Counted from the stretch's first letter, positions 10,716 to 58,936 are shown. The stretch: 64,000 bases of DNA from Candidatus Latescibacterota bacterium (GCA_965223905.1 CBDCXV010000001.1:1472001-1536000), one strand, 5' to 3'. Notes: generated by a model from the sequence alone, not told the origin. A program made the numbers and translations.

Positions 10716-10894
10716 GATGGAGTACAGTGGTCCCCCGGCTTTGAGGTTGAAGGGAGCGCCCTGGCGCGCTCGATTGCGGCGGGAAACGGGGCGCCAGGGC
10801 CACCCTCCGGGGCGTGGGAGCGCGGGCAGTGCCGGGTGCTTCGACGCCCGAGTGGGGCAACTTGCGGCCGCGACGCGACACTGGAGCGGTCTAC

Positions 10895-10932
10895 TTGCAA
10901 CGGTAGGACGCGCCAAATAAAGTTAGCTTTAT
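10895..10932 (+). promoter_or_regulatory. Sigma70-type promoter overlapped by an AT-rich palindrome
   Basis: TTGCAA (10895-10900), 17-nt spacer, TAAAGT (10918-10923); inverted repeat ATAAAG-ttag-CTTTAT at 10917-10932. Confidence 0.55.
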
Positions 10933-11062
10933 CAGCCACTGCGAGACATAAGCCCGCCAAGCGGCCGCTGGGGATTCGCCATATGAAACTCGAGTCACCG
11001 ACCGGCGGTCGATGCTCCGACTCCGAGCCTGTTGCGAAGCTTCCCTGAGGTCGTGGGTAACC

Positions 11063-14325: not shown

Positions 14326-15528
14326 TCACTTCCAGGGGAGCAGCCTGTCGGGCGCGTTCCGATCGATGCTCGCCCCGCGCGGTCGAGGGCCGAGGGGCCG
14401 GATCGGCTCACTGTCGGCGGGACGATAGGGGATGTCCAGGTAGGGTGTATCGATGACTCTGTGGTCCTCGTAGCGGGAGTTCATCACGGCATCGATGACG
14501 CCCGTGGTCAGCAGGGTCCGTTCCGGAGGGTAGGGCGGGACCCCGGTCTGGAAGAAACGCTGGATGTTGCGGCACAGGTAACCGAAGCTGGCGCCCGGAC
14601 CATCGGGCTGAAGGTAGAACTCGGTCGCCAGCGCCTGGCCGTTGACGCGGGCGGCGTAGGCCCAGTCATGGACATACCCGTGCAGCAGCAGGGCGGCGGT
14701 CCCCAGACCGTCGTTGTGCTCCATGAGGAACAGCCTCGGCATGCCGGCATGCTCCTGCATCGAGCCCTCCGGTTTGGCCTCGATGGCGGCGCAAGCCGCC
14801 TCCGCCAGTTCCGGTGACCACAGGCCCCGCTCTGCGGCCGTCCAGACTTCCTCCCCTTCCAGGCACTGCACCGAGCGCACGCCGCTCTCTCCTCCCGAAC
14901 GGCGCTCCACCATGCACTGCAGGGTCTCCAGCGTGTGGTAACCGTAGGCTTCGACCTTGCCGAAACCGATGGCCAGGGCTTCCTCGATCTCGGTTCCGGC
15001 CGGGTGCTCGAGCCAGGGATTGCGCCATGCCAGCGGCAGGCAGGAACCGGCCATCAGGGGAATGTCCAGCTCCGCGGCGCGGTTCCACATCCACAGGGCG
15101 TCGGCGAAATCGCAGGCGAAGTGCTTGTCGTTGAACACGGGCACCGAGCGGCCGCTGTGGCCGAACTCGCCGGCGATCTGCTCGAAGAAGTAACGGCGGG
15201 GATAGACGATTCTCTCGCGCTCGTTCCACGGATAGTCGCCGTGCTCGCCGATCAGGAGCACGGCGTCGACAGCGAGCTTGTTACCGCCAAGAGTGAGAGC
15301 GCTGCGGATGCTTGGGAACACCGGAACGTCGTGCTCGCGAGCCATCGCCATGCCGATGTCGCTGTCGAGGACGTGATCGATGTACAGGGAGGCGACGTCC
15401 ACTTCCGGTGGATACAGCCCCTCGTCCGTGGACATTCCCTTCAGGAATTTGGTGACGATGGCGTCGGCGTGGGAGGCCGCGTAGTAGACCGTGCAGATGG
15501 CCGCTACGCGCAACCGATCAGCCCTCAT
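14326..15528 (-). CDS. Conserved hypothetical protein, possibly a divergent Gfo/Idh/MocA-like oxidoreductase fold
   Basis: RVAAICTVY..SHADAI, DAVLLIGEHGDYP, VFNDKH, YGYHTLE, YPPERTLLTTG; 4-nt overlap with the upstream stop. Confidence 0.65.
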   Translation of the reverse strand: MRADRLRVAAICTVYYAASHADAIVTKFLKGMSTDEGLYPPEVDVASLYIDHVLDSDIGMAMAREHDVPVFPSIRSALTLGGNKLAVDAVLLIGEHGDYPWNERERIVYPRRYFFEQIAGEFGHSGRSVPVFNDKHFACDFADALWMWNRAAELDIPLMAGSCLPLAWRNPWLEHPAGTEIEEALAIGFGKVEAYGYHTLETLQCMVERRSGGESGVRSVQCLEGEEVWTAAERGLWSPELAEAACAAIEAKPEGSMQEHAGMPRLFLMEHNDGLGTAALLLHGYVHDWAYAARVNGQALATEFYLQPDGPGASFGYLCRNIQRFFQTGVPPYPPERTLLTTGVIDAVMNSRYEDHRVIDTPYLDIPYRPADSEPIRPLGPRPRGASIDRNAPDRLLPWK

Positions 15529-16418
15529 CCGCCCTCGCTGCCGCCGCGCTTCTGGGCGAAGATCCAGTCGAGGAGCTCGGGGTTGTCGAAGGCCAGGGGC
15601 CAGACCACGTGTCGCTCCCCCGGATACTCCGTGTACCTGGGGTTCCCCCCCGCCTTCCGGAGCGCTTCGACGATGTCGCGGGAGTAGGCCACCGGCACGG
15701 CGACGTCCTTCTCGCCGTGGAAGGCCCACACCGGGAGGTGGGCGATGGTCTCCGCCAGGGCCGGATCCGCCCCCCCGGCGACGGGGACGGCGGCGGCGAA
15801 CAGGTCCGGGCGGGAGATGATGAAATGCCAGGTCCCGTACCCGCCCATCGATTGACCAGTGATGTAGGTTCTGTCGCGGTCAATGCTGAATTCGCTCTGC
15901 AGCTGTTCGATGAGGGCAAAGACGCTCGAGCTGACGCCCTCCGGTACGGGCAGCGTGGTCTGCTTTTGCCATTTGGCCATGACGCTTTCCTGAACCGAGA
16001 AGCCCCAGTTTTTCTTCGCCGGACATTGCGGAACCAGGACGAAGCAGGGGTAGCGTTCGCGGTTCTCCGGTTTGGCCAATACCTGTGCAGCCCAGGAACC
16101 GGCGACCTGTTTGACGTTGTCCGCTCCCCGCGCGCCAACTCCGGCAAGGCAAACCACGAGCGGGTATTCCTTCCCGGGATCGTAGTCGCGAGGTGGCAGC
16201 AGCCGGTAGCGCAAGGTATCGCCGTCAACATCGCCGTAGGAGCGCGCCTCGAAGAGGGGGACGACGGTCTCCGGGGCTTCCCGCAGAGCGATGGCGAAGC
16301 GATCGGCGGCCTTCATCTCGTCCGCCTTTTCTGCTGCCGGCTCCGTCTCCGAACAGCCGGAAAGGGCGAGAGAGCCGATAATCGACAGCGCCGCGGTCGA
16401 GGAGGTTATTCGCGACAT
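15525..16418 (-). CDS. Alpha/beta-hydrolase (predicted peptidase/esterase) lipoprotein
   Basis: Lipobox LSGC; nucleophile motif GQSMGG; WAFHGEKD; terminal H of the triad. Confidence 0.85.
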   Translation of the reverse strand: MSRITSSTAALSIIGSLALSGCSETEPAAEKADEMKAADRFAIALREAPETVVPLFEARSYGDVDGDTLRYRLLPPRDYDPGKEYPLVVCLAGVGARGADNVKQVAGSWAAQVLAKPENRERYPCFVLVPQCPAKKNWGFSVQESVMAKWQKQTTLPVPEGVSSSVFALIEQLQSEFSIDRDRTYITGQSMGGYGTWHFIISRPDLFAAAVPVAGGADPALAETIAHLPVWAFHGEKDVAVPVAYSRDIVEALRKAGGNPRYTEYPGERHVVWPLAFDNPELLDWIFAQKRGGSEGG

Positions 16419-16434
16419 GCAAGACTCGAGCGGG

Positions 16435-17628
16435 CTACTGCTCCAGACGCCGGTCGATGAATTCGAAGGTGCAGGTCGCCGTTACCTTGGCGGTTGAGGA
16501 GGGCGTCATCGACGCCAGGGTGTCGGCCCGCGATCTCGCCGCCCCGGACGAGGCTTTGAGGCGCCAGCTCTGAACGGTGCGCCGAACACACTCGTTCACC
16601 TCCGCGCTGACGACGGAGGATGAGAGGATCGCAGCTTCCTTCACCAGACCGGATGGGAGGATGGTGAAACGCACGGCGACTTCCCCTTCCGAAGCCTTGC
16701 CGGCGGCGAACTCCTTTTCGAAGCAGCGATTGATATCCGCCAGCTTCGTCTTGGCGAAGGCGTCGATGGCGGTCACGTCGCGAGTGATATCACCGGTGAC
16801 GCTGCCGCTGACTTCGCTGGAGCCGCTCAACCTGGCGCGGGTGACCTGCTCGGCGGCGGCGTGCCATTCCTCCTGCTCCCAGGGCTCGACGGTCGTCCGC
16901 CGATCGAACTCGAAGGACAGGTCGACGGTTTCCAACGGTTTGTCGAAGGCGTTGAACTTCAGGACGAAGTCCCTGATCCGCAGGGTGACCGTCTCGACCT
17001 CCTCTTCGAGGGGTTCGAAGACGATGAATCCTCCGTATTTCTCGCCCTTGAAGATCTTCTCATCGCTCAGGTAGTTGTTCGTCCGCACGATACCCATGCG
17101 CATGTTGAAGCGGTAGTACTCATTGCCGCTGGGTCCCCGGCGTGTCCGGTAGTAGGACTCGAAGTTGTGGCGGGCGGACCCGGCCAGGACGCCGTAGGGC
17201 TCGATGACCTCACCCTTCCGGTTTGTCGTGACCAGGGAGCGCAGCGGCGGCAACTCCACCTTGGCGTGGTTGAGGTTGTGCACGGTTACCCGGAAGACCG
17301 TGAAGCGGTTGCGGACGTACCCCACGCCCGGATCAACGTAGTTGCCGTAGGTGTACGGATTCGAGGAATAGGGTCCCTGGGTGGACTCCAGGGGGAACTG
17401 CCGGTTCAGCGCCTGGTCGGTCATGTGCTCGACATCGATGCGCAGATCCTCCGCCTCGTAGGAGATCACACCGTCCGCTCCCAGGGTGTAGAGCGGTCCC
17501 TGGTCAGCTCTGGAAACCAGGCTGGAGGTGTACTCGAATTTCGGCGGGAAGATGAGCGCGCAGCTCGACAGAAGCGGCAACGCCACCGCCATGCCGGGAC
17601 GCCGAGGAAGCCTGTCCCCCATCCTCAT
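16435..17628 (-). CDS. Lipoprotein with a C-terminal AgmX/PglI (TonB-C-like) domain
   Basis: Lipobox LSSC; C-terminal INRCFEKE..GEVAVRFTILPSGLV..SS...VNECV..VQSWRL signature; start codon choice inferred. Confidence 0.75.
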   Translation of the reverse strand: MRMGDRLPRRPGMAVALPLLSSCALIFPPKFEYTSSLVSRADQGPLYTLGADGVISYEAEDLRIDVEHMTDQALNRQFPLESTQGPYSSNPYTYGNYVDPGVGYVRNRFTVFRVTVHNLNHAKVELPPLRSLVTTNRKGEVIEPYGVLAGSARHNFESYYRTRRGPSGNEYYRFNMRMGIVRTNNYLSDEKIFKGEKYGGFIVFEPLEEEVETVTLRIRDFVLKFNAFDKPLETVDLSFEFDRRTTVEPWEQEEWHAAAEQVTRARLSGSSEVSGSVTGDITRDVTAIDAFAKTKLADINRCFEKEFAAGKASEGEVAVRFTILPSGLVKEAAILSSSVVSAEVNECVRRTVQSWRLKASSGAARSRADTLASMTPSSTAKVTATCTFEFIDRRLEQ

Positions 17629-17635
17629 ATGCCCC

Positions 17636-18847
17636 TCACTGGTTGTAGAAGTCGATCTGCTGTTGGGCAATCGACCCCTTTTGAGTGAGGGCGAAGAGCA
17701 CGAGGTTGATCCCCAGCTTCACGTGGGGCTCGTTCTCGGTTTCCTTCTCCCAGAAGGCCCCGTACCCCTTGTCCGAATAGACCGCGACCAGGCGATCGTC
17801 GAGGTATATCCCCTCCAGCCAGTGAGAGGATCGGCGTCCGGCGCGGTTGAGGCTGGTCCCGACTCCCACCTCCCCGCCGGCGGGAGGACCGCCCAGGTCG
17901 AAGAAGACGTGGTAAATCGGATGGTTGTTCGGGATCCTCTGGAAACGGGCGTCGCGTCCGAGGGCGTGCCTGAACATCTGTCTGAGTGAAGCTTCGGCGG
18001 GGCCGTGGTGCATCTGGGGGAGGTCGTTGTCCGCCACCACGAAGCCTCCGTTGCGCAGGTAGCGCGCCAGGCTCGCGGCCTCGTGCTCGGTCAACTCGAA
18101 GGCCCGGTCCGTGGTGATGTAGACGAATGGCGCCTTGAACAGGTCCTGCGAGTCGAGGTACATCTGGTCGTCCACCTTGGCTTCGATGTTGGTGTGGTCG
18201 TTGATCCAACGGGCCAGTTGGATGATGGAGCGTTTCTTGGAAGGCTCCAGGATGGTCCCCCACGCCAGGCCCAGGTAGACGAATCCGGTGATGTTCCTCT
18301 TGTCCGTCGGGTCCTGGATCACGAGGCTCTTCACTTTGCCGATGTCGAGGGCGGCCAGGTCGAGAAACTCCGTCTCCATGTCGATGCGTTTCTCCGGCTC
18401 CTTCATGCTCGTCAGGGCGATTTGCTCGAACCGCGGAATGCCGACGAGGGCGTCGCCCATATCGCCGCCGCCGATCGAGACGGCGAACTCGGCGCTGCCG
18501 CCCGCGCGCGTCCACTGCATCGTCCCGCTCAGGGCGTTACCGACTGCCCTGCCCGTGACTACGGTCGCGGTGCGGTCGCTGCTGGCGCGGACCACGGGGG
18601 TTCCTTCCGGAACCGACTGCTTGCGGAAGGCGAACTCCCGCACGAGCCGGGGGGCCGGAAGAAAGAAGGGGGTGTCGTCCTCCTCGAATTCGAAGCGCGC
18701 GACGACGCGCTCTTCCTCCACCGGCCGCGTGGCCGTCAACCAGGTGAACACCCCAACGTGGAGCAGGGCGGAGAGGACGAGGCCTGCTCCCAAGAGGCGC
18801 CAGTTGCTCCTGATGACCCTGAGCCTGTCGGATCGGCGCCGCTTCAC
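17636..18847 (-). CDS. DUF4159-domain protein with an N-terminal TonB-like membrane anchor
   Basis: PFVYIT..F.LTEHE..LARYLRNGGFVVAD, HPIYHVFFD, LEGI..DDRLVAVYS, KLGINLVLFALT; N-terminal TM helix containing SALLH. Confidence 0.8.
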   Translation of the reverse strand: MKRRRSDRLRVIRSNWRLLGAGLVLSALLHVGVFTWLTATRPVEEERVVARFEFEEDDTPFFLPAPRLVREFAFRKQSVPEGTPVVRASSDRTATVVTGRAVGNALSGTMQWTRAGGSAEFAVSIGGGDMGDALVGIPRFEQIALTSMKEPEKRIDMETEFLDLAALDIGKVKSLVIQDPTDKRNITGFVYLGLAWGTILEPSKKRSIIQLARWINDHTNIEAKVDDQMYLDSQDLFKAPFVYITTDRAFELTEHEAASLARYLRNGGFVVADNDLPQMHHGPAEASLRQMFRHALGRDARFQRIPNNHPIYHVFFDLGGPPAGGEVGVGTSLNRAGRRSSHWLEGIYLDDRLVAVYSDKGYGAFWEKETENEPHVKLGINLVLFALTQKGSIAQQQIDFYNQ

Positions 18848-21800
18848 AGGTGCTTCCTCGCGATCGAATCACGTCGCCGTTGGGCGAATTCGGACACCTC
18901 GGGGGTGACTTGCGCGTTGCCCATCTCGCCCTCGGCTATGATCTCCTCGAACACGGCCACGGCCTGCTCCCACTCCTCGAGCCGCTGGAGGCAGACGCCG
19001 ACGTTGACCTTGGCAGCGACGCCGCCCGGCGTGTCGGGATAGCGTTTCCACACCTCTTCGAGAGGGATGATCGAGCCGCGCAGCTTGGCTTCGTCCTCCT
19101 CTCCGACCGCCAGGTTGAACTGTTCCATGGCGGCGCTGTACTCCTGGAAGGCGATCGCCTCGAGCAGTTGCGGCAGCACCGCGGTCGCCTCCGCGGCCTC
19201 CGCGGATCCGGGATACTCCTCCTGGATGGCCCTGAACTGGCCGTAGGCGAGCCGGTAATCCCCCGCGTTGAAGCTCATCTCGGCAAGGGTGTAGCGAACG
19301 GCAGGCAGGTGGCGGCCTCGCGGATAGCGTTCGGCGTAGGCCGAGAACGCCCGCGCGGTCTCCTCCGAACCCTGGCCGCCCGACGCGGCACTCGTCAGAC
19401 ACCATGCGATGTTGTACAGCGCGTTCTCGGCCACGGTGCTGGTCGGGTATCGGTCGATCACCGCCTGGTATGTCCGCCGCGCCAGCTCGTACTGCTTCAG
19501 GTTGAACCGGCACTCGCCGGCGCGGAAAAGGGCGTCGACCGCCACGTCCAGTCGCGGAAAGCGCTCGGCGGTTTGGGCAAAATGACCGGCGGCTTCATCG
19601 AAGCGGCTCTGGTTGTAGTAGGCGAAGCCCAGGTAGTACCGGGTGTAGCCGTCGTCCCGTCCGGAGAAATCCTCGAGCAGCTGTGTCAGTCGCCTCACCG
19701 CCTCATCCTGGCGGTCGAGCTGGAGCGCGGCCAACCCGCCCAGAAAGAGGAACTCGGGGGCGTAGAAGCCGCCTGGAAAGCGCTCCTGCCCGCCTGCCGC
19801 CGCGGCCCGGCCCGTGGCCGCATCCTGCAGCTGAATACTGGCGTCGGCGAGGAGGAACAGCGCCTTCTCGGCGACGAAGTACGGACGTTCCGGGGGCAGG
19901 CCTTCCTCTTCGAAATCGAGTTCTTCGATGCGGGCGCAGGCGGCGGCGACCTCGCCGTACCGACCTTCGCGGAAGGAGATCTCGGCCTGCGCCAGGTAGA
20001 GCTCGGCGGTCTCCAATGCCGTTTCCGTTTGCTCCGCCAGTTCTCCGTACAGGTCGAGTGCCTCGCCGAACCTGCCCAGGGAGGTATAGGCCGTGGCCAG
20101 GAGGCGCGGGGCTGAGGCGCGCAACTCGGGGTCGGTCCAGTCGCGCTCGAGGTCGCGCACCGCTTCCGCGATGCGGCCCATTTTAAACAAGGTGACGCCG
20201 CGGCCATACGCCGCGCGTTGTTCCAGGTCGAAGGCGGCGCCGGCGACGGCGGCGTCGAAGTGGGGCAGAGCGGCGGCGTGGTCGCCGAGGCTCGCGTGGC
20301 ATGCTCCCAGCAGGTAGCGGAACAGGGCCAGTGATGGACCATCCTGAGGATCGGCCGAACGGCGCCCGGCCTCCAGCACCTGGACCGCCCGCGCCGGTTC
20401 CCCGTTTTGAAGGAGGATCTGACCGGCTTCCTGGCGCGAGCGGGCGTAGAGGGCTGCCTCCGGGCGCACCTCCGTGAAGCGCTCGGCGGCGGCCGCCCAT
20501 TCGCCGGCTTCCTTCAGGACCACCCCCAGTTCGAAACGGGCGATGTCGGCCTCCGCATCGTCGGAGAATTCGCCGATTACCAGCTCGTAGACGGCCGCGC
20601 CGCCGCCGTATTCCTCGCGGCGGTGATGTAACCGGGCGATCTGGAACAGAGCGCTCTTGCGGTATCCCGCGCTGTCGCCGGCCTCACTGACGCTCGTGAA
20701 GAGGTCGAGCGCTTCATCCAGCTTGGCGCCGTCGTCCTGAAGCTGCAGGGCCAGCGCCAGATTGAAACGCAGTTCGATGTCGAAAGTGGAGCCTGGATAA
20801 GCCGTCAGCGTCTGGCGCAGCTCGGCCTCGGCGCGGCGGTGGTAGTCGAGTCGCTCCTCTTCCGGATGCCGTTCAGCCTCGCGGAACCACGCCCGGGCGA
20901 TCTGCAACCCGACCCCTTCGACGGCGAGCCCCGCCTGGGCGGCGCGCATCTCGTACAGGTCGCGGTAGCGATCGTACTCGCGCACCGCATCTTCGTAGCG
21001 CTCTATCTCGAAATAGCGGTTGGCGAGCAACAGCTGCATGCGCGCCTTGCCGAACGCATCCTGCCGTGCCTCGATCGCCCGGCGGTACACCTCGATGCAG
21101 GCTTTCAGGTCGCCCCGGTCGAAGTGCATGTCGGCGTGCCGCAGGTAGGCGTCCTCGGCCAGTCGGGGCTCTCCGCCGAACTGGGTGGCTACCGTTTCAA
21201 AAGCCTCGGCCGCCCTGTCGTGCTCCCCCAACCTGGCGTAGCACACGCCGATCCTCAACAGCGCCTTGGCCGCCAGTTCCAGAGCCGTTTCGTCGACGAG
21301 TCCGGCGATCTTCTCCCGTTTCATCAACAGGATTTCGCGCTCCGACATCTGGCCGATGCGTTGCGAGTCCACGAGCCGCTGGTACCTCGGGATGGCATCG
21401 GCGTAGCGCTCGAGCCTGAAGTAGGCCTCGCCGAGCTGGAACAGCGCCCGGTTTACCCGGTACCCGGTGGAGAAACGGGCGACGAGCTGCTCGAAGGCTT
21501 CGATGCTGTCGCCGTATTGCTCCATGTCGTAGTAGGCCCAGCCGATGTCGTACATCGCGTTGACGACGTACTTGCTTTCGGGGTAAGCCTCGATCAGCCT
21601 TCGAGCTCCGTCGATGGAGCGCTGGTATTCCTTCATTTTGTACCAACAGGTCACGGCCTGACTCCTGGCCAGGGCCTGGAGGGCCGTCACCGACGACGTC
21701 GCCTCGGTGGCGACGAAAAACTCGGCTGCCTGAGCAAACAACCGCGAAGCCCGGTCCAGATGCCCGGCGCGCTCGACCACGCCTCCCCGGCGCGCCGCCC

Positions 21801-22092
21801 TCCGCAGCTCCTCCTCCGCCATCTTGAAGTGAGCGTTTCCGGTCTGGTACCGGGCCACCTCGAGCAGCGGCGCGCTGATGTCGCCGACGGTGACCAGGAC
21901 CGCATCCGCATCCAAAAAGCGGCTGTCGCTGTCGCCGATCCGACCGTAGCTCTCGATGGCCTGATCGTACGCCCCGGACGAGTAGAATTTCTGGGCGTCG
22001 GCAAAGGACGCACGGAGCTCTTCGCTGGTCGGCGAGAACCGGGTCGCCGCGATCATCGCCACCAGCCCGCCCAGGATTGCCAGCTGGATCAA
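18844..22092 (-). CDS. Large exported TPR scaffold protein (BamD/YbgF-like repeats)
   Basis: Many TPR pairs of the type A.Y.IG.AYY..Y..A..F..L...YP.S; hydrophobic N-terminus; RBS AAAGGA before TTG. Confidence 0.88.
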   Translation of the reverse strand: MIQLAILGGLVAMIAATRFSPTSEELRASFADAQKFYSSGAYDQAIESYGRIGDSDSRFLDADAVLVTVGDISAPLLEVARYQTGNAHFKMAEEELRRAARRGGVVERAGHLDRASRLFAQAAEFFVATEATSSVTALQALARSQAVTCWYKMKEYQRSIDGARRLIEAYPESKYVVNAMYDIGWAYYDMEQYGDSIEAFEQLVARFSTGYRVNRALFQLGEAYFRLERYADAIPRYQRLVDSQRIGQMSEREILLMKREKIAGLVDETALELAAKALLRIGVCYARLGEHDRAAEAFETVATQFGGEPRLAEDAYLRHADMHFDRGDLKACIEVYRRAIEARQDAFGKARMQLLLANRYFEIERYEDAVREYDRYRDLYEMRAAQAGLAVEGVGLQIARAWFREAERHPEEERLDYHRRAEAELRQTLTAYPGSTFDIELRFNLALALQLQDDGAKLDEALDLFTSVSEAGDSAGYRKSALFQIARLHHRREEYGGGAAVYELVIGEFSDDAEADIARFELGVVLKEAGEWAAAAERFTEVRPEAALYARSRQEAGQILLQNGEPARAVQVLEAGRRSADPQDGPSLALFRYLLGACHASLGDHAAALPHFDAAVAGAAFDLEQRAAYGRGVTLFKMGRIAEAVRDLERDWTDPELRASAPRLLATAYTSLGRFGEALDLYGELAEQTETALETAELYLAQAEISFREGRYGEVAAACARIEELDFEEEGLPPERPYFVAEKALFLLADASIQLQDAATGRAAAAGGQERFPGGFYAPEFLFLGGLAALQLDRQDEAVRRLTQLLEDFSGRDDGYTRYYLGFAYYNQSRFDEAAGHFAQTAERFPRLDVAVDALFRAGECRFNLKQYELARRTYQAVIDRYPTSTVAENALYNIAWCLTSAASGGQGSEETARAFSAYAERYPRGRHLPAVRYTLAEMSFNAGDYRLAYGQFRAIQEEYPGSAEAAEATAVLPQLLEAIAFQEYSAAMEQFNLAVGEEDEAKLRGSIIPLEEVWKRYPDTPGGVAAKVNVGVCLQRLEEWEQAVAVFEEIIAEGEMGNAQVTPEVSEFAQRRRDSIARKHL

Positions 22093-22105
22093 AGCCGATC
22101 CTTTC

Positions 22106-24931
22106 TCATTCGTCGAACCCGAGGATGACGTTGAAAAAGAGGGTAATCGTGTCCCAGCTTTCCGCCGCCCGCAACGGGTCGCTGAATCGACGCGACCGCG
22201 TTCGCGCTCCCAGGTTCATCGCCACTTCGTAGCCGAAGTAGGGCGAGCGGTTCGTCAGCTGCAACACCCGGGATTCCTCATCGAGGCTGTTGAATCCGTC
22301 GGCGCGGTCGTCGAGGCGCACGGGCAGGCCCGGCAGGCCCTCCATGCCGAACCACACATGGGTGCGGTCGGACAGCCGGTACTGCACCTTGAAGACCGGC
22401 ATCAGCGTCCATTCATGGGCGAGGTCGACGGGAAGGCTCTCACGGGTGCGGCGCAGCACCAGTCCCTTGCATTGCCCGGTGATCTGCCACTGCCGGGTCG
22501 GCTCCCAAACGTACTCGCTCTTGGCCACCACGGTCAGCAGGGCGAGTCTGTCGGGAGGCTGGTCGCTGCCGTCCGCCAGGTGGGCTCCCCGCTGACGGTT
22601 GACGGCGTACCGCGCATTCCCCCAGAGGCGCAGGCCGCTCGCCGCTCGCCACTCCCCTTCCAGATAATGCTGGCGGTCGACACTGTTCCGCCACTCCAGC
22701 TCATCGCTGAAGATGCGCCGCAGGTAGCGGGGGAATGTTCCCGTTCCCGTCAGCTGCTCGGCGAAGACCTGATACGGGTTCTCGATGTCGTCGTGCAGAC
22801 GCTGGAGCAGGGTCTCGGCGCGGATATAACCCCGGTCCGGGTTGGCCTGCTCGAACGTAACGCGCCCGTACACACTCTCGTTGCGGGCGCCGCTGGCAAT
22901 CCCCTTCGCGTGCAGGCGACCCGCTGACAGCCCGGCCCCATACGGCAGGCGCAGGCGACCGTAGAAATGGGTGCCGCGCTGATCCAGCTCGTACGGATAA
23001 TCCGGACGCAGATCATCCTCGCGCACATCCACGATGCCGTTGTTGTTCCAGTCCCGGCCGTAGGCGAATTGGTCCGACTCGACGTCAAAACGAAGGAACG
23101 GCTCCAGGTAATCCGGCAAGTCGTTGCCGTTCCGGTTCGTGTCCGGTATACCGTCATGGTCCTCGTCCTTGCCGGGGAACACGCCGTCCGGGTCGTATTC
23201 AGGGGATGTGTAGAAGATCGCCGGTCTGTGGCCGTGGCCGATGTCGGGGTAGCGGTCGTTGTCGTCGTTGTCCTCGACGAAACCGCTGTTGTAGTCCTCG
23301 TCCATCGAAAAAACCTCGCCGCCGCTCTCCACCATCTCCCGGCGCCATTGGGCCGTGATGTAGTAGGCGCCGGAGGCGGTGGTACTGCGGTCCCCATTCC
23401 ACTGGCGCAGCGCCCGGGTCTCGCCCAGGGTCCGAAAACCAGGCTGACCGTTGGGATACTGCCTGTACTCGACGCTGCGCGCGTATTCCCATTGCACCCG
23501 GGCGCCGCCGGCCTCCCACGAGCCGTTCAGGCCCCACAGCATGCGGCCGGTCCAGCCACCCACGTTAAGGGTGACCCATTCGAGATTCGACAGGTCCTGC
23601 ACGTTGCCCTGCGACCGCAGCTGCGCCCGGATCCCCGATATCGCCCGGGTATGGCCCTGCCCTCCTTCGTCCAGCCCGGAGATTATCCCGCCTCCGATAC
23701 TCCAGCGGAGCTCCTCGTTCCGGGTCCGCTCGTTGGCCATGAACAGTCCGAAGATATCCACCCGGTAGTCGTTGCCCACCAGCGCTTCGAGTTGCGCTCC
23801 ACTCACCTGCGGCTCGTTGCGCAGGTCATAGTAGAACATGACGACCTCATCGCCGTCCGCCCGCCTCTGCGGGGCTCCCGGAGGCAACGGCTCCACCCAG
23901 CGCAGCAGCTCCGGCAGATTCACGGAACTCTCCACGTCCTCGCCGGCCAGATGGCGCCGCAGGTAGAGCACGTCGGCGTACTTCGTTCCCTCGTCCGCGT
24001 ACAGCGTGCGCCGGAATCCCGAGCGCGTATCGCGGCCGACGGCGGAGGGATTCCGCGCCTTGATGCGCACGATGAACGGCTGCAGGTCGGGGCGCGGTTG
24101 CCCGTTCAGATGCATCCTGACCTCGTTGATGACGGCTCCCGCGACATCGTCGTCGGGCGAATCATCGGCGAACCGCACGATCAGAAAGCTCGGCAATACC
24201 TGAACCGATTGCAGGCCGCCGCGCAGCGCGAAATCGGCCTGGTGGGCGTCGAAGAGATGGAAATTCACCGCCGTCGCCCCCAGCTTCGCTGCGCCCGCCC
24301 GCACCTCGCCGTGTCCTCCGAGCAGCATCGCCGCATCCCGTTGCTTGGCGGCGACGTCGTTTTCTCTCCAGGTCGGTTGCTGGCCGTACAGATCCCTGGA
24401 AACCGGCCCCGTCCAGCGCTGGGCGATGGCGGTGAAACGGGTGTGCCTGGTTTCGGTGTCCAGACGCACGCCGTCGAAACCGGCCAGGCGCAACGTCAGC
24501 GGCGTGAACAGCGTGCGGATCTCGCTCCCGATGATGAGGCCCCCCGCCCATCCTTTGTGAGACTCCTTGGCGACGATGTTGCGCTCGAAGCGGTCCCACC
24601 TCTGCCTGTTTTCCAGCGGCAGGGGGAGGTCCCTGATGCTGCGGGGCTCGATCGAGGCGGTGTTCGTCCTCATCTCCCGCCACCGGTACACGTCGTATCC
24701 CTTGATCAGAAAGTTGCCCATCGGACCGTAATGGTTGACCCTGGAATACCGGCTCGAGTCGGGGATTGCGTAGTCGGTAAAGCTGTAGTCCCGGTAGCCG
24801 GGTCCCGCACGGTAGAGGAAGTCCCTGGCGGCCAGGATTCGGGGCACCCCGGGTGCGTTCTGCGCTCCCGCAGCGCCCACACACCCTATCAGATAGCAGG
24901 CGGCCAGGCATGTCGACCGGACGCCCCTCAT
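22106..24931 (-). CDS. Exported ~940-aa protein, putative outer-membrane beta-barrel with Asp-rich loops (paralog A)
   Basis: Signal peptide ending AGA-Q; DNDDNDRYPD/FPGKDEDHDG/PDYPY cassette; amphipathic strands in the C-terminal third. Confidence 0.7.
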   Translation of the reverse strand: MRGVRSTCLAACYLIGCVGAAGAQNAPGVPRILAARDFLYRAGPGYRDYSFTDYAIPDSSRYSRVNHYGPMGNFLIKGYDVYRWREMRTNTASIEPRSIRDLPLPLENRQRWDRFERNIVAKESHKGWAGGLIIGSEIRTLFTPLTLRLAGFDGVRLDTETRHTRFTAIAQRWTGPVSRDLYGQQPTWRENDVAAKQRDAAMLLGGHGEVRAGAAKLGATAVNFHLFDAHQADFALRGGLQSVQVLPSFLIVRFADDSPDDDVAGAVINEVRMHLNGQPRPDLQPFIVRIKARNPSAVGRDTRSGFRRTLYADEGTKYADVLYLRRHLAGEDVESSVNLPELLRWVEPLPPGAPQRRADGDEVVMFYYDLRNEPQVSGAQLEALVGNDYRVDIFGLFMANERTRNEELRWSIGGGIISGLDEGGQGHTRAISGIRAQLRSQGNVQDLSNLEWVTLNVGGWTGRMLWGLNGSWEAGGARVQWEYARSVEYRQYPNGQPGFRTLGETRALRQWNGDRSTTASGAYYITAQWRREMVESGGEVFSMDEDYNSGFVEDNDDNDRYPDIGHGHRPAIFYTSPEYDPDGVFPGKDEDHDGIPDTNRNGNDLPDYLEPFLRFDVESDQFAYGRDWNNNGIVDVREDDLRPDYPYELDQRGTHFYGRLRLPYGAGLSAGRLHAKGIASGARNESVYGRVTFEQANPDRGYIRAETLLQRLHDDIENPYQVFAEQLTGTGTFPRYLRRIFSDELEWRNSVDRQHYLEGEWRAASGLRLWGNARYAVNRQRGAHLADGSDQPPDRLALLTVVAKSEYVWEPTRQWQITGQCKGLVLRRTRESLPVDLAHEWTLMPVFKVQYRLSDRTHVWFGMEGLPGLPVRLDDRADGFNSLDEESRVLQLTNRSPYFGYEVAMNLGARTRSRRFSDPLRAAESWDTITLFFNVILGFDE

Positions 24932-27705
24932 CCCTGGAACGGCTCCACACCCATCACCAGTCGCAGGAAGAACAGGGACCGATCGATGTCCTGCAGGGCG
25001 CGCCTGCGGTCCTTGAACCTCAGCTTCTTAAGCTGGTAACCCACGTTGAGGGTCATAAGGTGGCCCTGGTAGGTGGAGGTATTGATCAGCATCGCGATGT
25101 AGTCCTCGGAGGAATAGTCCACCTCGCGATTGAGAGGAAAGCGGTACTGGCTTTTTAGGAAGGGCAGCCCCTGAGCACCCGCGCGCAGAGAGGTCCGCGG
25201 CGTCAACGGGTAATCGACCACCGCGATCGGATAGAAAAGACGCTCGGAGATCTCGTTCACCCTGCCCCTGGCGTCCTTCTTCCGGTAAAGCATGTATTTC
25301 ACCTTCGGGGTAATGGTCAGCGAGTGCACTCTCCAGGCGTAATCCGCCCTGAGCACCCATGCCAGCTCGCGCACCGAGTTGCCCGGCTGCAGGGCGGTCT
25401 TGCGCTGCCGATTGAGGGTGTGCTTGAATCGATTGTTGATGTTCAAGTTCCGCACGCGCAGGAACGTGGCATCGAAGTAGGCCGTGTTCGCCCAACTATC
25501 CCTCATCAACAGTTCGTCTTCCACTTCGGCGGTAAAGGAACTGAGGACAAATGAGTTCGGATTCCGGGGGATCGCGTGCTGCTCGAAGAAGGCGAACCGG
25601 GGCGTATCGTCGGCGATGTCGTCGCGGACCCGCTTGAGCGTGTTGGTGATGTTCACCCGGGCGTACGGATAGAGGGGGCGCTGGTAGTTGAGCTTGGCGT
25701 AAGAGACCCGATTGCGCCCGCCTCCCCAGATCCCTTCGACCCGGTAGCGCCCCACGGCCAGTTTGAGATCGTTGGCCGCTTCGAACTCCACGTACAGGTG
25801 GTGTCCTTTGGAGTCGGTCTCGTAGGGATAATCCGGGTCGCGATCGTCCTCGCGGTGATCGATGAGGCCGTTGTTGTTCAGATCGTCTCCCGGAGCGTAT
25901 TCCGGGGGATCGACCTTGTAGAGGAAAAACGGTTCCAGGTAGTCGGGCTCGTTGTTTCCATTTTCGTTCGTGTCCGTGCGGCCGTCCTGGTCCTGGTCCA
26001 GTCCGGGAAAGACACCGTCGATGTCGCCGAAGCTGATGGGTAGAAAGTGGAAATCCGGAAGCAGATCCTTGTCGTCGTTGTCGTCGACCGTGTCCAGCTC
26101 CAGAGTGTCGTTGTAGCGTTCTACCCAGTTGGGTTGGATCTCGCCGGCGAACGGTGCCCCGATGACGTCGGTGTAGGTTCGGAACACGGGACTCTGAACG
26201 GACAGGGAAGTCCCGTAGAGCGGGTCCATTCTAAAGAGCTCCCCGCCCATGACGAAGTGGTCGAACCGCCGTGTCGCGTTGATGTAAAACGCATCCCCGG
26301 TACGCTTTTGCCAACGCTGCCGGCCCAGTCTCGTCGGGTACTGCCGGAAGTCGAAACTGCGCGCCCACTCGGAGCGCACCTGAAAGCCGGAACTCTCGAA
26401 CTCCGCCCGGACGCTGGCTGCGGTTCTCCCGCTCTGCCTGCCGTATTCGAATTCCACCCAGCGCAGGTTGGCGCCGTCCTGGACCTTGCCTTCCTGGGCG
26501 GCGACGTCGTAGAAGTAGGAGGCCTGCTGGCCGAAGCCCCCGGCCCCCGAGGCCAGCGGACGGATTTCGGAGATGCTGATGCGGTAGTCGTTGGCCACCA
26601 GGGCCTTGAAGCGGATGGACTCGATGCCGTCGCGCTCCTGTTCGGGAATCGCGAACCAGTAGATGAGGAATTCGCTGCCGTTGGCCTCGAGGAAACCCTC
26701 GCGCGTCGGATCCTGAAGCGGGAAATCCCCCCGGCCGAACTGGATGTAGGGAGGAATGGCGCGATCGCGTGGGAACAACCGGTCCCAGTTGACGTTGGTT
26801 TGCTCGATTTCGCGGGAATCGTGCCGGGTGATGCTGACCTCGACAAAGGCATCGAGGTCCCCATCGATCTGCATATCGAGAACGCGGGCTCCCTTGCCGT
26901 CGTTCTCGGTGCCATCGCTGACTTTGACGGCGATCAGCATCGGCGGCAAGGTTCCCGTCGAAGGAAGCACCCCCTTCAGGCCGTGGTCGCCCCAGTCGAT
27001 GAAGCTGTCCGTGCGGTTCATGTTCACGTAGGTGAATCTCAGGTTCAGGGCGCCGATCTCTCGATCCAGGTGACCGCCCAGCAGATAGGTCGGCTCCTGT
27101 CGTTTCCCGTGAAAGGCGTTGTCTTCCGGCAACGCCCTGCCCACGAGGAGCTTTGCCTGGTATATGGGAGCGTCGAACCTGGAGGAGATCAGCGAGACCC
27201 TGGTGTTCTTCGTCGCCAGATCCCAACGCACCCCGTTCAAAGCAGCCAGATCGAGCGTGAGGGCGGTGAACTTGGTGCGGATGCGGTCGCCGACGATGAG
27301 CCGGCTGTTCCAGTTCTTGTAGCTGTCGTGAGCCACGACCAGATTGTTCACCCAGTCCGAGTACATGGACCTCGACTGCCCAGCGCTGACGCCGCGCTCC
27401 CCGAAGGCCCTGTTGGACTTGTCGATCAGGCTGCCATCGGTGAGGGCCAGCGATGGCCTGGTCTCCTCGCTGGTCCAGATCGTCGTGCCGCGCATGATGG
27501 AATTGCCCAGGTGATCGAAGACCGGCGCTCTTCTCCGCGACCACGGGTCCACCGCGTACGGGTAATAGCCATGGCGGGCGTAGCTTTCCTCGTAGAACTC
27601 GGCCTCGTCGTAGAGCAGCTGGCACAATCCGCCAGCCGGAATGAAAAGAACCGCCCACCATCCCAGGACGAGGGATCTGAGACCGCCGGCTGTTGGCCCC
27701 GCCAT
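24928..27705 (-). CDS. Exported ~925-aa protein, putative outer-membrane beta-barrel (paralog B)
   Basis: Colinear motifs shared with A and C (GD.IRT.F..LTL..G.RWD, LLGGH, NDYRI, FPGLDQDQDG, PDYPY). Confidence 0.7.
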   Translation of the reverse strand: MAGPTAGGLRSLVLGWWAVLFIPAGGLCQLLYDEAEFYEESYARHGYYPYAVDPWSRRRAPVFDHLGNSIMRGTTIWTSEETRPSLALTDGSLIDKSNRAFGERGVSAGQSRSMYSDWVNNLVVAHDSYKNWNSRLIVGDRIRTKFTALTLDLAALNGVRWDLATKNTRVSLISSRFDAPIYQAKLLVGRALPEDNAFHGKRQEPTYLLGGHLDREIGALNLRFTYVNMNRTDSFIDWGDHGLKGVLPSTGTLPPMLIAVKVSDGTENDGKGARVLDMQIDGDLDAFVEVSITRHDSREIEQTNVNWDRLFPRDRAIPPYIQFGRGDFPLQDPTREGFLEANGSEFLIYWFAIPEQERDGIESIRFKALVANDYRISISEIRPLASGAGGFGQQASYFYDVAAQEGKVQDGANLRWVEFEYGRQSGRTAASVRAEFESSGFQVRSEWARSFDFRQYPTRLGRQRWQKRTGDAFYINATRRFDHFVMGGELFRMDPLYGTSLSVQSPVFRTYTDVIGAPFAGEIQPNWVERYNDTLELDTVDDNDDKDLLPDFHFLPISFGDIDGVFPGLDQDQDGRTDTNENGNNEPDYLEPFFLYKVDPPEYAPGDDLNNNGLIDHREDDRDPDYPYETDSKGHHLYVEFEAANDLKLAVGRYRVEGIWGGGRNRVSYAKLNYQRPLYPYARVNITNTLKRVRDDIADDTPRFAFFEQHAIPRNPNSFVLSSFTAEVEDELLMRDSWANTAYFDATFLRVRNLNINNRFKHTLNRQRKTALQPGNSVRELAWVLRADYAWRVHSLTITPKVKYMLYRKKDARGRVNEISERLFYPIAVVDYPLTPRTSLRAGAQGLPFLKSQYRFPLNREVDYSSEDYIAMLINTSTYQGHLMTLNVGYQLKKLRFKDRRRALQDIDRSLFFLRLVMGVEPFQG

Positions 27706-27706
27706 T

Positions 27707-35772: not shown

Positions 35773-37710
35773 ATGGAGTTTTTCCGCGGACTGCTGGCGA
35801 TCCTCGCCGTGGCGGCCGCGTTGGCCCTCCCGACGGCCTGCGGGCCACAACCGGAGAGGCCGAACGTGGTCGTCCTCCTCATGGACACGCTCAGGGCGGA
35901 TCGGCTCGGCTGCTACGGATACGCCCGGGCGACCAGCCCAGCCGTCGACAGCCTCGCGGCAGCCGGGGTCGTTTTCACCCGCTGTTACGCCCCGTCGGAT
36001 TACACCCAGGCCTCCACAGCTTCGCTCTTCACCGGGAAATACCCGCTTGCGCACGGATATGTGAACTCCAACTACGTGCTCGAAGATTCCAACCTGACCA
36101 TTGCCGAGATCTTCCGCGACGCCGGCTACACCACTGCGGGGTTTATCGCCAACGGCCTCGCGGGCAGAAAGTACCGGATGGATCAGGGCTTCGAGATGTA
36201 TTTCGAGAAGAACAGGGCGTCGGCTCCAGAGTTGTCGGCGGCAGCCACGGCCTTTATCGGTACACAGTCGGCTGCGGGCGGCCCGCCCTTTTTCATGTAC
36301 TTGCATTTCCTCGACGTCCACGATCCACACCGGATTCCCCCCACCCACTTCGGCAGGTTCGCCGACCCGGCCGCCTTCGCGTTCGACATGCAGGATACCC
36401 TGCTGCTGGAGACTTTCGCGATGCGGGCCTGGTGGTCCGTGGTCCAGAAGTGGCGGCCTGGGAAGGAAGGGGAGATCGCCACCTACTTCGACGACTACTC
36501 GGATCTCTACGACGCTTCCATCGCCTACTGGGACGATTCCGTGGCGGCGATCCGGGAGTCGCTGGCCGCGAACGGCTTCGATCGCAACACCATCATCGTC
36601 GTCACCTCCGACCACGGGGAACAGCTTCTTGAGCACGGCTTTTTCGGACACGCCAACTCCGGCTACGAGGTGGGCCTGCACGTCCCTCTCATCCTTTTCG
36701 ACCCCTATGCTGATGGGGGCAATCGCGGCAGACGGCTTTCTCACCTGGTCGGCCTCGTGGATGTTTTACCCACCCTGCTGAACCGGGTCGGGATCGAGGT
36801 TCCCGCGCAGGTTCAGGGTCGGTCGCGCTGGCCGTACGACCCGGCGCCGGAGGGCACCCCCGAAGAGGATGCCGCAACCGTGTACACAGAGGGAACCTTC
36901 TTTAAAAACCGCCCGGTCGGCACCCTGATCCAGTCCTACCGGCAGGGGGACTGGAAGCTCCTCCTTGACCGCTTGCGAGACTCCAAGGAACTCTACGATC
37001 TGCGCCGCGACCCCGGCGAAACCCGGAACCTGTTCGACGCACGGCCGGAGATCGCCTCGAGACTTTTCGACGGCCTGCGGCAACAGTACAACGGGAATCT
37101 CGAGATCTTCGACGCCCGCTCGAGGTCGCCGATGGAACAGGTCGAGGAGAAGCTGGAGGAGCTCCAGTCGCTGGGGTACGTGACCGCTGTGGATCCTCCT
37201 CGTGGGGCCCCGGCCCAGTATTTTCCCATCGCGGCGGCCGATCTGACCCGGTTTGGACCGTTCGGGGACGAGGAAGACCTTCACCTGTTCAATAATGTCG
37301 ATTTCTCCCGTCGTGGCCGAATCGCGCTTGGGCAGATCGTGCGCGGCTGCAGTGAAGACCCCAGTCGCGCCGACACTTCGGGGGTCTGGTTTGACCGGCG
37401 TTCCACTTTCCTTTTGCGGAATGACGGGCGCATGTGGCGCATTTTCTTCGAAATCCTGATCGATCCGCACGCGCCCCTGCACCCGACACGGATCCAGGTT
37501 GAATTCAACGATGCGCCAGGAGAGTCGTTTCGCATCTCCGGCCCCGGGCATCATCGGCTGGAGAGCGCTCTGCCGGCGTCCCTGTGCGCCCCGGGATATT
37601 TCCACGCTGGATTACTGGCCGATCGCCGCTTTGTCCTGCGCGCGGGAACCTCGCCCAGATCAGACCGCTACGCCTCCATAAAAATCCGCCGTGTCGGCCT
37701 GGGGCAGTGA
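35773..37710 (+). CDS. Sulfatase-fold (alkaline phosphatase superfamily) lipoprotein with a Thr-type active site and a C-terminal extension
   Basis: PNVVVLLMDTLRAD, SDYTQASTASLFTG, HFLDVHDPH, SDHGE, HVPL, ELYDL..DPGE, LQSLGY; lipobox-like PTAC. Confidence 0.85.
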   Translation: MEFFRGLLAILAVAAALALPTACGPQPERPNVVVLLMDTLRADRLGCYGYARATSPAVDSLAAAGVVFTRCYAPSDYTQASTASLFTGKYPLAHGYVNSNYVLEDSNLTIAEIFRDAGYTTAGFIANGLAGRKYRMDQGFEMYFEKNRASAPELSAAATAFIGTQSAAGGPPFFMYLHFLDVHDPHRIPPTHFGRFADPAAFAFDMQDTLLLETFAMRAWWSVVQKWRPGKEGEIATYFDDYSDLYDASIAYWDDSVAAIRESLAANGFDRNTIIVVTSDHGEQLLEHGFFGHANSGYEVGLHVPLILFDPYADGGNRGRRLSHLVGLVDVLPTLLNRVGIEVPAQVQGRSRWPYDPAPEGTPEEDAATVYTEGTFFKNRPVGTLIQSYRQGDWKLLLDRLRDSKELYDLRRDPGETRNLFDARPEIASRLFDGLRQQYNGNLEIFDARSRSPMEQVEEKLEELQSLGYVTAVDPPRGAPAQYFPIAAADLTRFGPFGDEEDLHLFNNVDFSRRGRIALGQIVRGCSEDPSRADTSGVWFDRRSTFLLRNDGRMWRIFFEILIDPHAPLHPTRIQVEFNDAPGESFRISGPGHHRLESALPASLCAPGYFHAGLLADRRFVLRAGTSPRSDRYASIKIRRVGLGQ

Positions 37711-37834
37711 TTGGCTCGACCGGGACGCACCCGCTTGGGACGGCACTGTTTCTGCCCTCACTGCCCGATTCCGGTTGCGCCGGTATCGCAGCCGGCGACC
37801 GGCCGCAGTTCATCGAGCCCCTGAACAACCTCAG

Positions 37835-43665: not shown

Positions 43666-43874
43666 AGCCTTCAGGCCCTGAGCCGGGTCGGGAGGATGGT
43701 CCGGCAGTTTAAATTTACTGATATCATTACCCATGCCGTGTCGCGGAAAGTTGAATGCCGATTCGGGCGTCGGGAGGCACCGGCGGTCGATCCGGCGAGA
43801 TTTATGCGACGCGACACCGGGCATTCCATTCCCGCGGGTCACCCGAGCCGCCGCCGCCGCGCTCCGGGCGACCG

Positions 43875-57987: not shown

Positions 57988-58245
57988 CGATCGGAGCCGG
58001 GGAGGATCATGGGGCGGACCGCGGCCTGGTGCGCACCCCTCGAACCTGCGCCCGACTCCCGTTGACCGTCCACCGGTGAACGGGTTCTGACGGGGGCCGG
58101 TCCCGAACCGGGACCCGGGCACCGCTTGTGCCGCGGAATGGCGTCAGGTATTTTGCCCGAAAACGCCGGAATTCGTACGGATCACGCGCTGAACCGCGGT
58201 CCCCGGCTGGCTTTCAACAATCTTGCTACGATACGGAGAGACGGG

Positions 58246-58923: not shown

Positions 58924-58936
58924 CTCGAGAGGTGCC

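Follow-up and report, generated by a model that had tools for sequence, protein, structure and literature searches.

This study addresses three adjoining genes in a 64,000-nucleotide stretch of a Candidatus Latescibacterota bacterium genome (CBDCXV010000001.1:1472001-1536000). The whole stretch is referred to here as the window, and all positions are counted within it. The three genes lie on the minus strand and encode large proteins that are paralogs of one another. In the order of transcription, they are C (27707-30427, 906 amino acids (aa), with a GTG start and the same 906 aa form in a protein collection, P0237), B (24928-27705, 925 aa, the reference for all residue numbers given below), and A (22106-24931, 941 aa). 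Pairwise BLASTP aligns them from end to end, with 31% identity between C and B (E 8e-100), 28% between B and A (E 3e-91), and 26% between C and A (E 1e-73), a similarity far above chance level. The original prediction, made from the DNA of the window alone, described three tandem divergent paralogs, and this description is borne out by the alignments. The motifs that it listed (LTL..G.R.D, LLGGH, SDDSP.D, NDYR, G.VQD.SN..WV, and G.QGLP) are present in the three-way alignment, and the C-terminal strands FFNVILGFDE, FFLRLVMG, and FFIQVRAL read as it quoted them.

The three genes are co-directional, translationally coupled, and packed in an operon-like manner. A single nucleotide separates the stop of C from the start of B, the stop of B and the start of A overlap as ATGA, and C shares 23 nt at its start with the end of the gene before it, which encodes a 740 aa protein. 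Downstream, the stop of A is 13 nt away from the start of the next gene, encoding a tetratricopeptide repeat (TPR) protein, and this spacer contains a GAAAGGA stretch. A promoter and terminator scan of 15300-35200 gave counts at the level of shuffled sequence (3 versus 2.4; 11 versus 13.2). Of six sequencing runs that contain the stretch, none is listed as RNA. A terminator-like hairpin was seen at 32836-32855 (minus strand), in the 249 nt gap between the genes of a 651 aa protein and the 740 aa protein, in a region where such sites are not above shuffles.

Distribution and orthology of an unnamed family

Pfam and NCBIfam contain no model that A, B, or C matches. Word-indexed searches returned 112 relatives for B, 123 for A, and 51 for C, all of them named "hypothetical protein" by their sources. 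A HMMER scan of 1.84 billion cluster representatives (50% identity) found 1200 at E ≤0.001 and 413 at E ≤1e-30. With one genome taken per species, at least 612 stretches encode a relative, and the counts for public loci given throughout refer to the best 73 of these. By label, 53 of the 73 carry names beginning with Latescibacter and 15 are metagenome-assembled genomes with names beginning with Gemmatimonad; KSB1, Zipacnadia, Planctomycetota, Myxococcales, and "uncultured" contribute one each. Across the phylum, the family is present in 94 of 151 sampled genomes, including all 63 genomes of the window's own taxonomic family and none of the 30 and 19 genomes of two sister families. Those 63 genomes hold 10-95 first-look candidates each, a range that serves as a rough guide to copy number.

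The genome of the window (7.9 Mb, 11 contigs, 93.6% complete) encodes 35 full-length members, distributed over 21 clusters, of which 11 are singletons, six are pairs, and four are triples. At the other end of the range, the KSB1 genome has a single family copy, and a 3.7 Mb genome holding locus L014 has the C-B-A triplet and no further family member. No description of the family or of its gene neighborhood was found in full-text searches of the literature, where DUF4159, the name of a neighboring domain, gave only the Pfam database paper as a search term. A 2015 genomic survey of Latescibacteria mentions, in the portion of the article available, only non-specific porins and Plug-domain receptors (PMC4454575). 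The barrel family is unnamed and new, but its parts and those of the module around it have known relatives. These include type IX secretion system (T9SS) cargo with shuttle barrels, motors of the Ton/Tol type that work with TPR proteins and alternative transducers, and, like SlpA, giant barrels whose inserts bind metal. The family is large, yet it is without a Pfam or NCBIfam model and without a name in any source. Transposase genes (DDE_3, IS66, IS21/IstB, and IS91-type) and two reverse transcriptase (RVT_1) genes were observed near the satellite lectin-barrel pairs at loci L099, L100, L102, and L103 of the window's genome, and these neighbors may be linked to the spread of the family within the genome.

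The history of the triplet was followed with FastTree on 162 members and with IQ-TREE (LG+G4) on 85 rows. In the FastTree phylogeny, the middle genes of triplets (B) form one clade (n=25, support 1.0), and so do the upstream genes (C; n=24, support 1.0). The downstream genes (A) make up three subclades within a broader clade (n=47, support 0.86), in which many singletons are found as well. In IQ-TREE, the 14 C-position, 14 B-position, and 14 A-position proteins each lie on one side of a branch with an SH-aLRT of 100, and 43 ungrouped rows may fall inside these groups. Gene order is equally regular. Among the 22 public loci matched by a B-type gene, a C-type gene lies directly upstream of B in all 21 that have an upstream flank, and a third family member lies downstream in all 22. 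This third member abuts B in 13 loci and is 0.7-2.1 kb away in five; in the remaining four it is about 5.7 kb away, with TPR, DUF4159, and TonB_C genes intervening. Because the clades are distinct and the adjacency is conserved, the triplication is old and retained, and C-B is an invariant pair. The co-occurrence of three orthologous clades, on which the original prediction had proposed to judge the triplet, is thus found for this triplet.

The family as a whole presents a different picture. Eleven of the 21 clusters in the window's genome are single genes, lineage-specific pairs and triples exist, and KSB1 has its one copy. Single genes and lineage-specific duplicates are among the outcomes that the original prediction had named as speaking against it. 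In the FastTree phylogeny, other arrays of two or three barrels arose independently, including three copies on contig C2 of the same genome, the type seen at loci L040 and L064, and the pair type of loci L045 and L055. Since singletons are so abundant, hetero-oligomerization cannot be obligatory for the fold, which counts against the earlier proposal of obligate hetero-oligomeric subunits. The conserved C-B pair offers a tractable case for how paralogous giant barrels specialize.

Barrel topology from covariation

Contacts were derived by mean-field direct coupling analysis (mfDCA) of 577 family sequences aligned to the family profile, with gauge correction and with the gap state excluded. An uncorrected first covariation pass reflected mainly gap artefacts and was not used. 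The corrected mfDCA gives a chain of antiparallel hairpins, and the main hairpins recur when only the 315 full-length sequences are used. Overall, the chain between sequence-neighboring segments is unbroken and antiparallel across residues 115-918 of B (413-417 sequences, effective number (Neff) ~330-350). With the full alphabet, residues 628-925 (417 sequences, Neff 348) form an unbroken chain of the pairings 634-656, 653-668, 668-692, 689-741, 744-758, 756-787, 785-804, 800-830, 828-844, 844-869, 867-892, and 888-914. When only putative strand columns are considered (413 sequences, Neff 328), all 16 ladders at or above 5 standard deviations (SD) join neighbors, bridge inserts, or represent the closure 141-918, in which the last strand meets the second. 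This closure reaches 5.8 SD and is the best partner of the last strand. It is specific for the antiparallel orientation (2.86 versus 0.63 for parallel) and exceeds the column-shuffled maximum of 2.32, a value from one shuffle, which also removes phylogenetic signal. Segment 28-40 was considered as a partner of the last strand and set aside, being not amphipathic and having a parallel signal as strong as the antiparallel one.

Covariation suggests 22-23 strand segments after a domain of ~85 residues, an inexact strand count. Hydrophobic alternation lies above the 90th percentile in 13 of 24 putative strands. A neighbor-to-neighbor antiparallel chain, closed from the last strand to the second, is the topology of a transmembrane barrel. 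On these grounds, each paralog is most likely a closed barrel of ~22 strands, preceded by an N-terminal domain of ~85 residues and carrying two large inserts. We infer from this topology that A, B, and C are outer-membrane barrels, and we hold this to be likely. Each protein also begins with a putative Sec signal peptide, as had been proposed, in the form of a basic and then hydrophobic leader that ends in A or C followed by Q. At this junction, Gln stands at the aligned position in 215 of 361 family sequences, with Ala before it in 122 of 261.

The first large insert of B is a beta-rich domain at residues ~229-427 (26425-27021, minus strand), placed between two barrel strands and bridged by the ladder 222-434 (7.7 SD). 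Pairings inside it (262-376, 267-406, and 366-417) come from the same covariation, which lends support to the inserted beta-sandwich of the original prediction as an inserted domain. The second insert is rich in Asp and Asn and occupies residues ~495-629 (25819-26223, minus strand). It contains DxDxDG, NNNG, and PDYPY motifs, D, E, and N together make up 0.32 of its residues, and the ladders 490-633 and 483-641 bridge it. This Asp-rich insert is the most conserved part of the protein in the A, B, and C groups alike, with invariant columns clustering there, and its motifs suggest that it probably binds calcium.

Several observations weigh against the barrel assignment. Of the 40 ladders at or above 4 SD, eight join non-neighboring segments, and an earlier covariation pass had pointed to segment 28-40 as the partner of the last strand. 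The assignment depends on covariation from ~330-350 effective sequences and a single shuffle control. The proteins end in ...GFDE (A), ...EPFQG (B), and ...VRAL (C), with no aromatic last residue, and such a residue is found in only 76 of 274 gene-called family proteins, where a median of 2 residues (range 0-6) follows the last strand. The original prediction had itself raised the missing terminal Phe as a caveat, and the caveat is real. Its model of an outer-membrane barrel with an inserted domain therefore fits the topology and lacks the terminal beta-signal. Finally, no similarity to solved structures was found, as a profile search of PDB sequences gave one spurious match, to a restriction enzyme (E 0.006).

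Some weak similarities point toward a barrel. SlpA_C (PF21620) is the only named family with repeated weak matches, always to model region 200-323. The matches, all below threshold, occur in nine of 54 scanned homologs, in 14 of 120 A-type homologs (precomputed), and twice among the genome's own members; the best score is 26.6 bits versus a gathering threshold of 35, and A, B, and C themselves do not match. SlpA of Deinococcus radiodurans is, like the barrels predicted here, built from a single very large chain with long insertions, metal-binding sites among them, as described in the accessible part of PMC9388160. It differs in that A, B, and C, which have no Pfam domain, have no SLH domain or coiled-coil stalk, and in its 28-30 strands, compared with ~22 inferred here. 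A search of the PDB, which is expected to hold SlpA, did not find it with the family profile. One homolog has weak matches to the Autotransporter and DUF3570 barrel models. In a language-model atlas, the proteins fall into otherwise unnamed clusters, the nearest named one being DUF6029, a TonB-dependent-receptor-like barrel, at 0.89, which is a lead only; an hhalign comparison of the family with the genome's own DUF6029-like open reading frame (ORF) found nothing.

SurA-like peptidyl-prolyl isomerase (PPIase) genes occur in six of the 12 satellite loci, in three cases immediately behind the barrel, and also after barrel pairs in public loci. By their position, those that directly follow a satellite barrel or a barrel pair look like dedicated chaperones. 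The loci with SurA-like PPIase genes, a few of which carry fused TPR repeats, are L100, L102, L104, L105, L106, L108, and L109 of the window's genome and the public loci L003, L045, L048, L054, L055, L056, and L067.

The surrounding module and its links to secretion and motors

The triplet is the center of a conserved module of eight genes, all on the minus strand, whose start and stop codons overlap or nearly abut. The first gene (32877-34832) encodes a 651 aa secreted protein with a type-A-like T9SS C-terminal sorting domain (TIGR04183, 29.6 bits versus a cut-off of 23), to which FlgD_ig and CHU_C also match; its body has no recognizable domain. In at least nine C-B-A loci, a homolog immediately precedes the 740 aa gene, and homologs also stand upstream of some A-like singletons. 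The second gene (30405-32627) encodes the 740 aa protein, a lectin-like surface protein with a lectin-like N-terminus, an F5/8 type C (CBM32-like) domain (Pfam F5_F8_type_C, E 3.9e-10), and a CHU_C/FlgD-Ig T9SS tail (CHU_C 29.2 bits, gathering threshold 27). A profile search against the PDB leads to lectins (E 4e-10), CBM32 modules, and the C-terminal domains of FlgD and PorU, and neither this search nor Pfam found a catalytic domain. Homologs of the 740 aa protein are found in 48 of the 73 public loci.

Three further genes follow C, B, and A. The 1082 aa TPR protein (18844-22092) has an N-terminal hydrophobic anchor or signal and matches many TPR families as well as the YbgF-like and BamD-like repeats of NCBIfam; homologs lie beside family barrels in 30 of the 73 loci. 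The next gene (17636-18847) encodes a 403 aa protein with an N-terminal transmembrane helix, LSALLHVGVF (S-x3-H), an acidic and Pro-containing linker, and a DUF4159 head (E 2.1e-29), with homologs in 25 of the 73. The His of the helix is present in six of seven homologs inspected, and S-x3-H is present in the window and at L001 and L002. The DUF4159 head matches PDB entry 4i66, an uncharacterised protein (E 8e-7), and the helix recalls the SHLS-motif helix of TonB and TolA. From these features, the protein is a candidate for a force transducer of the TonB/TolA type. The last conserved gene (16435-17670) encodes a lipoprotein of ~390 aa with an LLSSC lipobox and a C-terminal domain of the TonB_C/AgmX-PglI type (TonB_C 26.6 bits, gathering threshold 24.6; NF033768, the AgmX/PglI tail model, 56 bits versus a cut-off of 40), and homologs occur in 36 of the 73. 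It is highly probable that the barrels and their neighboring genes form one functional unit. The original prediction did not take this module into account, and the likely role of the barrels changes because of it.

A canonical T9SS is encoded in the genome (SprA, PorU, and a PorV-like gene), along with at least 50 proteins that carry such tails. In 18 of 20 tested cases in the genome, plus the case of the window, a C-terminal CHU_C and/or FlgD-Ig domain is encoded by the ORF immediately before a family gene or array, with CHU_C over the Pfam threshold in 11 of the 20. The two exceptions are a DUF6785/6784 membrane protein and an ORF with an F5/8C match only. Among 127 family genes in public loci, 44 follow a tailed gene of the 740 type and 43 follow another family gene.

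A genomic link to the motor genes ExbB and ExbD is frequent as well. ExbB-ExbD(-ExbD) genes lie directly after the TPR gene in two deep-branching paralogous modules of the genome, and on contig C3 a TPR gene has ExbB as its neighbor. In 11 of the 73 public loci, five of them C-B-A loci, ExbB is present, mostly accompanied by one or two ExbD genes, and L014 has the complete order C, B, A, TPR, DUF4159, TonB_C, ExbB, ExbD, ExbD. Operons of a TPR gene, tolQ, two tolR, and a transducer with a non-TonB head have been published, according to the part of PMC12204202 that is available. In the window itself, an ExbB gene (265 aa, MotA_ExbB E 1.8e-30) followed by ExbD-like ORFs at 58937-59371 and 59317-59772 was observed on the plus strand within 58126-59772. 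This ExbB-ExbD-ExbD set could be the motor of the module or a general Ton system.

Glycan import and rival explanations

The explanation that we favor, tentatively and at somewhat less than even confidence, is that of an outer-membrane platform, linked to a motor, that captures and imports glycans. The tailed surface proteins would be exported by the cell's canonical T9SS and stay docked on the barrels. The barrels would act as substrate-specific gates through which captured glycans pass into the periplasm. The platform would be coupled to a proton motor of the ExbB-ExbD type by the DUF4159 protein, as an inner-membrane-anchored transducer with a TonB-like helix, by the TPR protein as a giant scaffold, and by the TonB_C lipoprotein. 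C and B would probably form a hetero-oligomeric pair, with A as a third, looser partner. A C-B hetero-oligomer is plausible because of the invariant adjacency, the gene coupling, the repeated independent origin of two- and three-barrel arrays, and the precedent of GltB and GltA, paralogous tandem barrels that interact and stabilize each other, as reported in the available portion of PMC4488436.

Uptake is favored for several reasons. No catalytic domain was found in the lectin-like 740 aa partner, and the lectin-barrel copies number in the dozens and are divergent, as in nutrient systems and unlike motility machines. The satellite loci hold GH32 and GH43, a BNR sialidase-like protein, UxuA, an FGE-sulfatase, and polytopic DUF6785/6784 membrane proteins. 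Furthermore, the predicted arrangement of an N-terminal domain and ~22 strands, together with Ton-type partners, would resemble a TonB-dependent transporter in plan, although not in sequence. DUF6785/DUF6784 proteins with 9-16 hydrophobic segments were observed beside four family clusters (L075, L097:12239-14242, L103:17351-19348, and L108:2-2104), and are candidates for inner-membrane permeases.

The SusC/SusD pairs of Bacteroidota offer a possible functional parallel. In these, a surface glycan-binding protein is encoded beside a large outer-membrane barrel, in dozens of substrate-specific copies among glycoside hydrolases and sulfatases. The plan here is similar, with a lectin-like protein, a probable large barrel, dozens of copies, and catabolic neighbors. 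The parts differ, as the binding protein is a T9SS-tailed lectin and not a SusD lipoprotein, and the barrels have no Plug or TonB_dep_Rec domain. Should energized glycan gates with T9SS-displayed lectin lids be confirmed, they would represent a second, independent solution to the problem that SusCD solves in Bacteroidota, and would explain the feeding of a phylum abundant in sediment, in soil, and in association with sponges. A wider claim, which we regard as unlikely in its full extent, is that Latescibacterota (and KSB1, with its single copy) evolved modular glycan import independently of the Bacteroidota SusCD. T9SS lectins would sit on plug-less, ~22-strand barrels with calcium inserts, and the core copies would be driven by ExbB-ExbD through the DUF4159 transducer and the TPR scaffold. 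C-B(-A) would be the ancestral hetero-oligomeric core, and the satellites would be substrate-specific add-ons. The family brings together three topics that are mostly studied separately: the sorting of T9SS cargo, force transduction of the Ton/Tol type, and the use of polysaccharides by uncultured bacteria of the FCB group.

A number of findings count against glycan import by such a platform. No Plug or TonB_dep_Rec match was found in A, B, and C, and an hhalign comparison with 23 of the genome's own TonB-dependent transporters gave a probability of 0.6%. The genome already has 27 canonical Plug-domain transporters, and none of these 27 Plug matches lies at a family locus. No motor gene adjoins the module of the window, where the nearest ExbB-ExbD-ExbD set is 28 kb off, and neither ExbB nor ExbD is matched in the flanks of the closest orthologous loci, L001 and L002. 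As a lipoprotein, the TonB_C protein differs from a membrane-anchored TonB. On the side of the cargo, 40 of the 127 family genes in public loci follow neither a tailed gene of the 740 type nor another family gene; six of the 40 have no flank, and others come after a 651-type tailed gene or enzymes. None of 18 tails tested in the genome reaches the NCBIfam cut-offs for type A or type B, so that by sequence the cargo tails are a divergent class. In deep-branching modules, moreover, a gene for a small (~300 aa) PorV/PorQ/PorP-like barrel lies between the tailed gene and the giant barrel. This small barrel, with 35.7 bits to PF11751 (cut-off 22.3) and 33-67 bits to NF033709 (cut-off 90), was seen at L038 (the KSB1 locus), L039, and L053, and also twice among the modules of the window's own genome. 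Because it intervenes there, tail docking may not be the job of the giant barrel.

The original prediction had also considered cargo-specific shuttles, and cargo specificity gains support from the usual position of family genes behind a gene for a T9SS-tailed surface protein. In its strictest form, this idea makes the barrels passive anchors or shuttles for T9SS cargo, similar to PorP/SprF and without transport or energy coupling. The order of tailed protein and then barrel in 18 of 20 cases of the genome agrees with it. In Flavobacterium johnsoniae, T9SS cargo genes are followed by genes for PorP/SprF-like (or PorV/PorQ-like) shuttles; the accessible part of PMC12618676 describes type B cargo genes with a porP/sprF-like gene behind them. 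The likeness lies in a tailed-protein gene followed by a gene for an outer-membrane-type beta protein, in many pairs per genome. The partner here has ~900 aa as opposed to ~300 aa, and arrays of two or three barrels stand behind one cargo gene. The curated PorP/SprF models gave nothing at or above cut-off in the genome, where only PorP/PorV-like small ORFs were found, a result compatible with passive anchoring. A genome search with PF11751 was also empty, but the control was empty everywhere too, which makes this weak evidence of absence. A, B, and C themselves have no sequence or profile similarity to PorP/SprF: they match none of PF11751, TIGR03519, and NF033709, and hhalign against a PorP/SprF-like ORF gave a probability of 0.2%. 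The shuttle role seems to be filled by the small PorV/PorP-like barrel in the deep-branching modules, B never has a cargo gene of its own, and the linked TPR, DUF4159, TonB_C, and ExbBD genes would be left unexplained. Passive anchoring is accordingly rather unlikely in our view. The obligate hetero-trimeric channel, which was the leading interpretation of the original prediction, would place one A, one B, and one C side by side in a porin-like trimer. We consider it improbable, even though the three orthologous clades are kept together and translationally coupled, the genome holding L014 has the triplet only, and SlpA, a barrel of weak similarity, forms homotrimers and has insertions that bind metal (PMC9388160, in the part available). 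The 11 singleton clusters and the single KSB1 copy mean that the fold needs no three different subunits, 0.7-5.8 kb of other genes part A from C-B in nine of 22 loci, and A groups with singleton paralogs. Furthermore, no alignment column was found in which all three ortholog groups are at least 75% conserved, each for a residue different from the others.

An adhesion or gliding machine of the Agl-Glt type, in which the barrels couple a proton motor to lectin adhesins for movement on, or attachment to, polysaccharide, is about as improbable as the trimer. Its part list is similar, as the Agl-Glt core complex comprises a TolQR-like motor, the ~1191 aa TPR protein GltD, and the TonB-domain protein GltG, as listed in the accessible part of PMC3169522. 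GltB and GltA are tandem paralogous barrels there (PMC4488436, in part), and the TonB_C domain of the window matches the AgmX/PglI tail model above its cut-off. The core complex and the operons of PMC12204202 share with the present module, as far as these two sources are available, a giant TPR protein, a TonB_C protein, and a single-helix, His-bearing inner-membrane protein with an alternative head; the head here is DUF4159 and not vWA or TonB_C, and ExbB-ExbD-ExbD adjoin related modules and not that of the window. The barrels belong to another, much larger family, unlike the small, OmpA-like Glt barrels, and T9SS cargo lies within the unit. The GltG model of NCBIfam matches at 31.8 bits versus a cut-off of 650, a match confined to the C-terminal domain, and the TPR protein is matched by neither GltD nor GltE models. 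In addition, 35 copies with different lectin partners among catabolic genes speak for substrate-specific systems rather than one motility apparatus. If a motor-driven adhesin platform were nevertheless the answer, the Glt-type principle would be extended far outside Myxococcota. Very improbable is a non-membrane reading, which would make A, B, and C beta-rich proteins that bind calcium and are secreted or periplasmic, and the tandem copies plain duplicates without joint function. The missing C-terminal aromatic residue, the lack of Pfam, NCBIfam, and PDB matches, the sandwich-like ladders between non-neighboring strands, and Asp-rich calcium-type motifs, which are common in soluble and surface proteins, would all suit it. 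However, a next-neighbor chain of ~22 segments with the last coupled to the second describes a barrel and not a sandwich or propeller, and every weak similarity that has a name is to a barrel family (SlpA_C repeatedly; Autotransporter and DUF3570 in one homolog). The adjacent SurA-like chaperone genes and a C-B order kept over deep divergence point in the same direction.

The remaining genes of the window provide some minor observations. A sulfatase gene (35005-37710, plus strand) is divergent from the module, and its homologs adjoin the module in L001, L003, and L023 too. FG-GAP/ASPIC (UnbV) repeat proteins, some of them TPR-fused, are encoded at 8961-10916 (minus strand) and at 11012-12751, 37691-40195, and 40093-43665 (plus strand), and such proteins recur near other family modules of the genome (L105, L110, L111, and L114). 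Elsewhere in the window, DUF6057, DUF4838, and two type I phosphodiesterase family proteins are encoded at 43755-45803 (plus strand), 54356-56668 (plus strand), and 49903-54022 (minus strand), and a DUF4838 protein also precedes a family singleton at L071.

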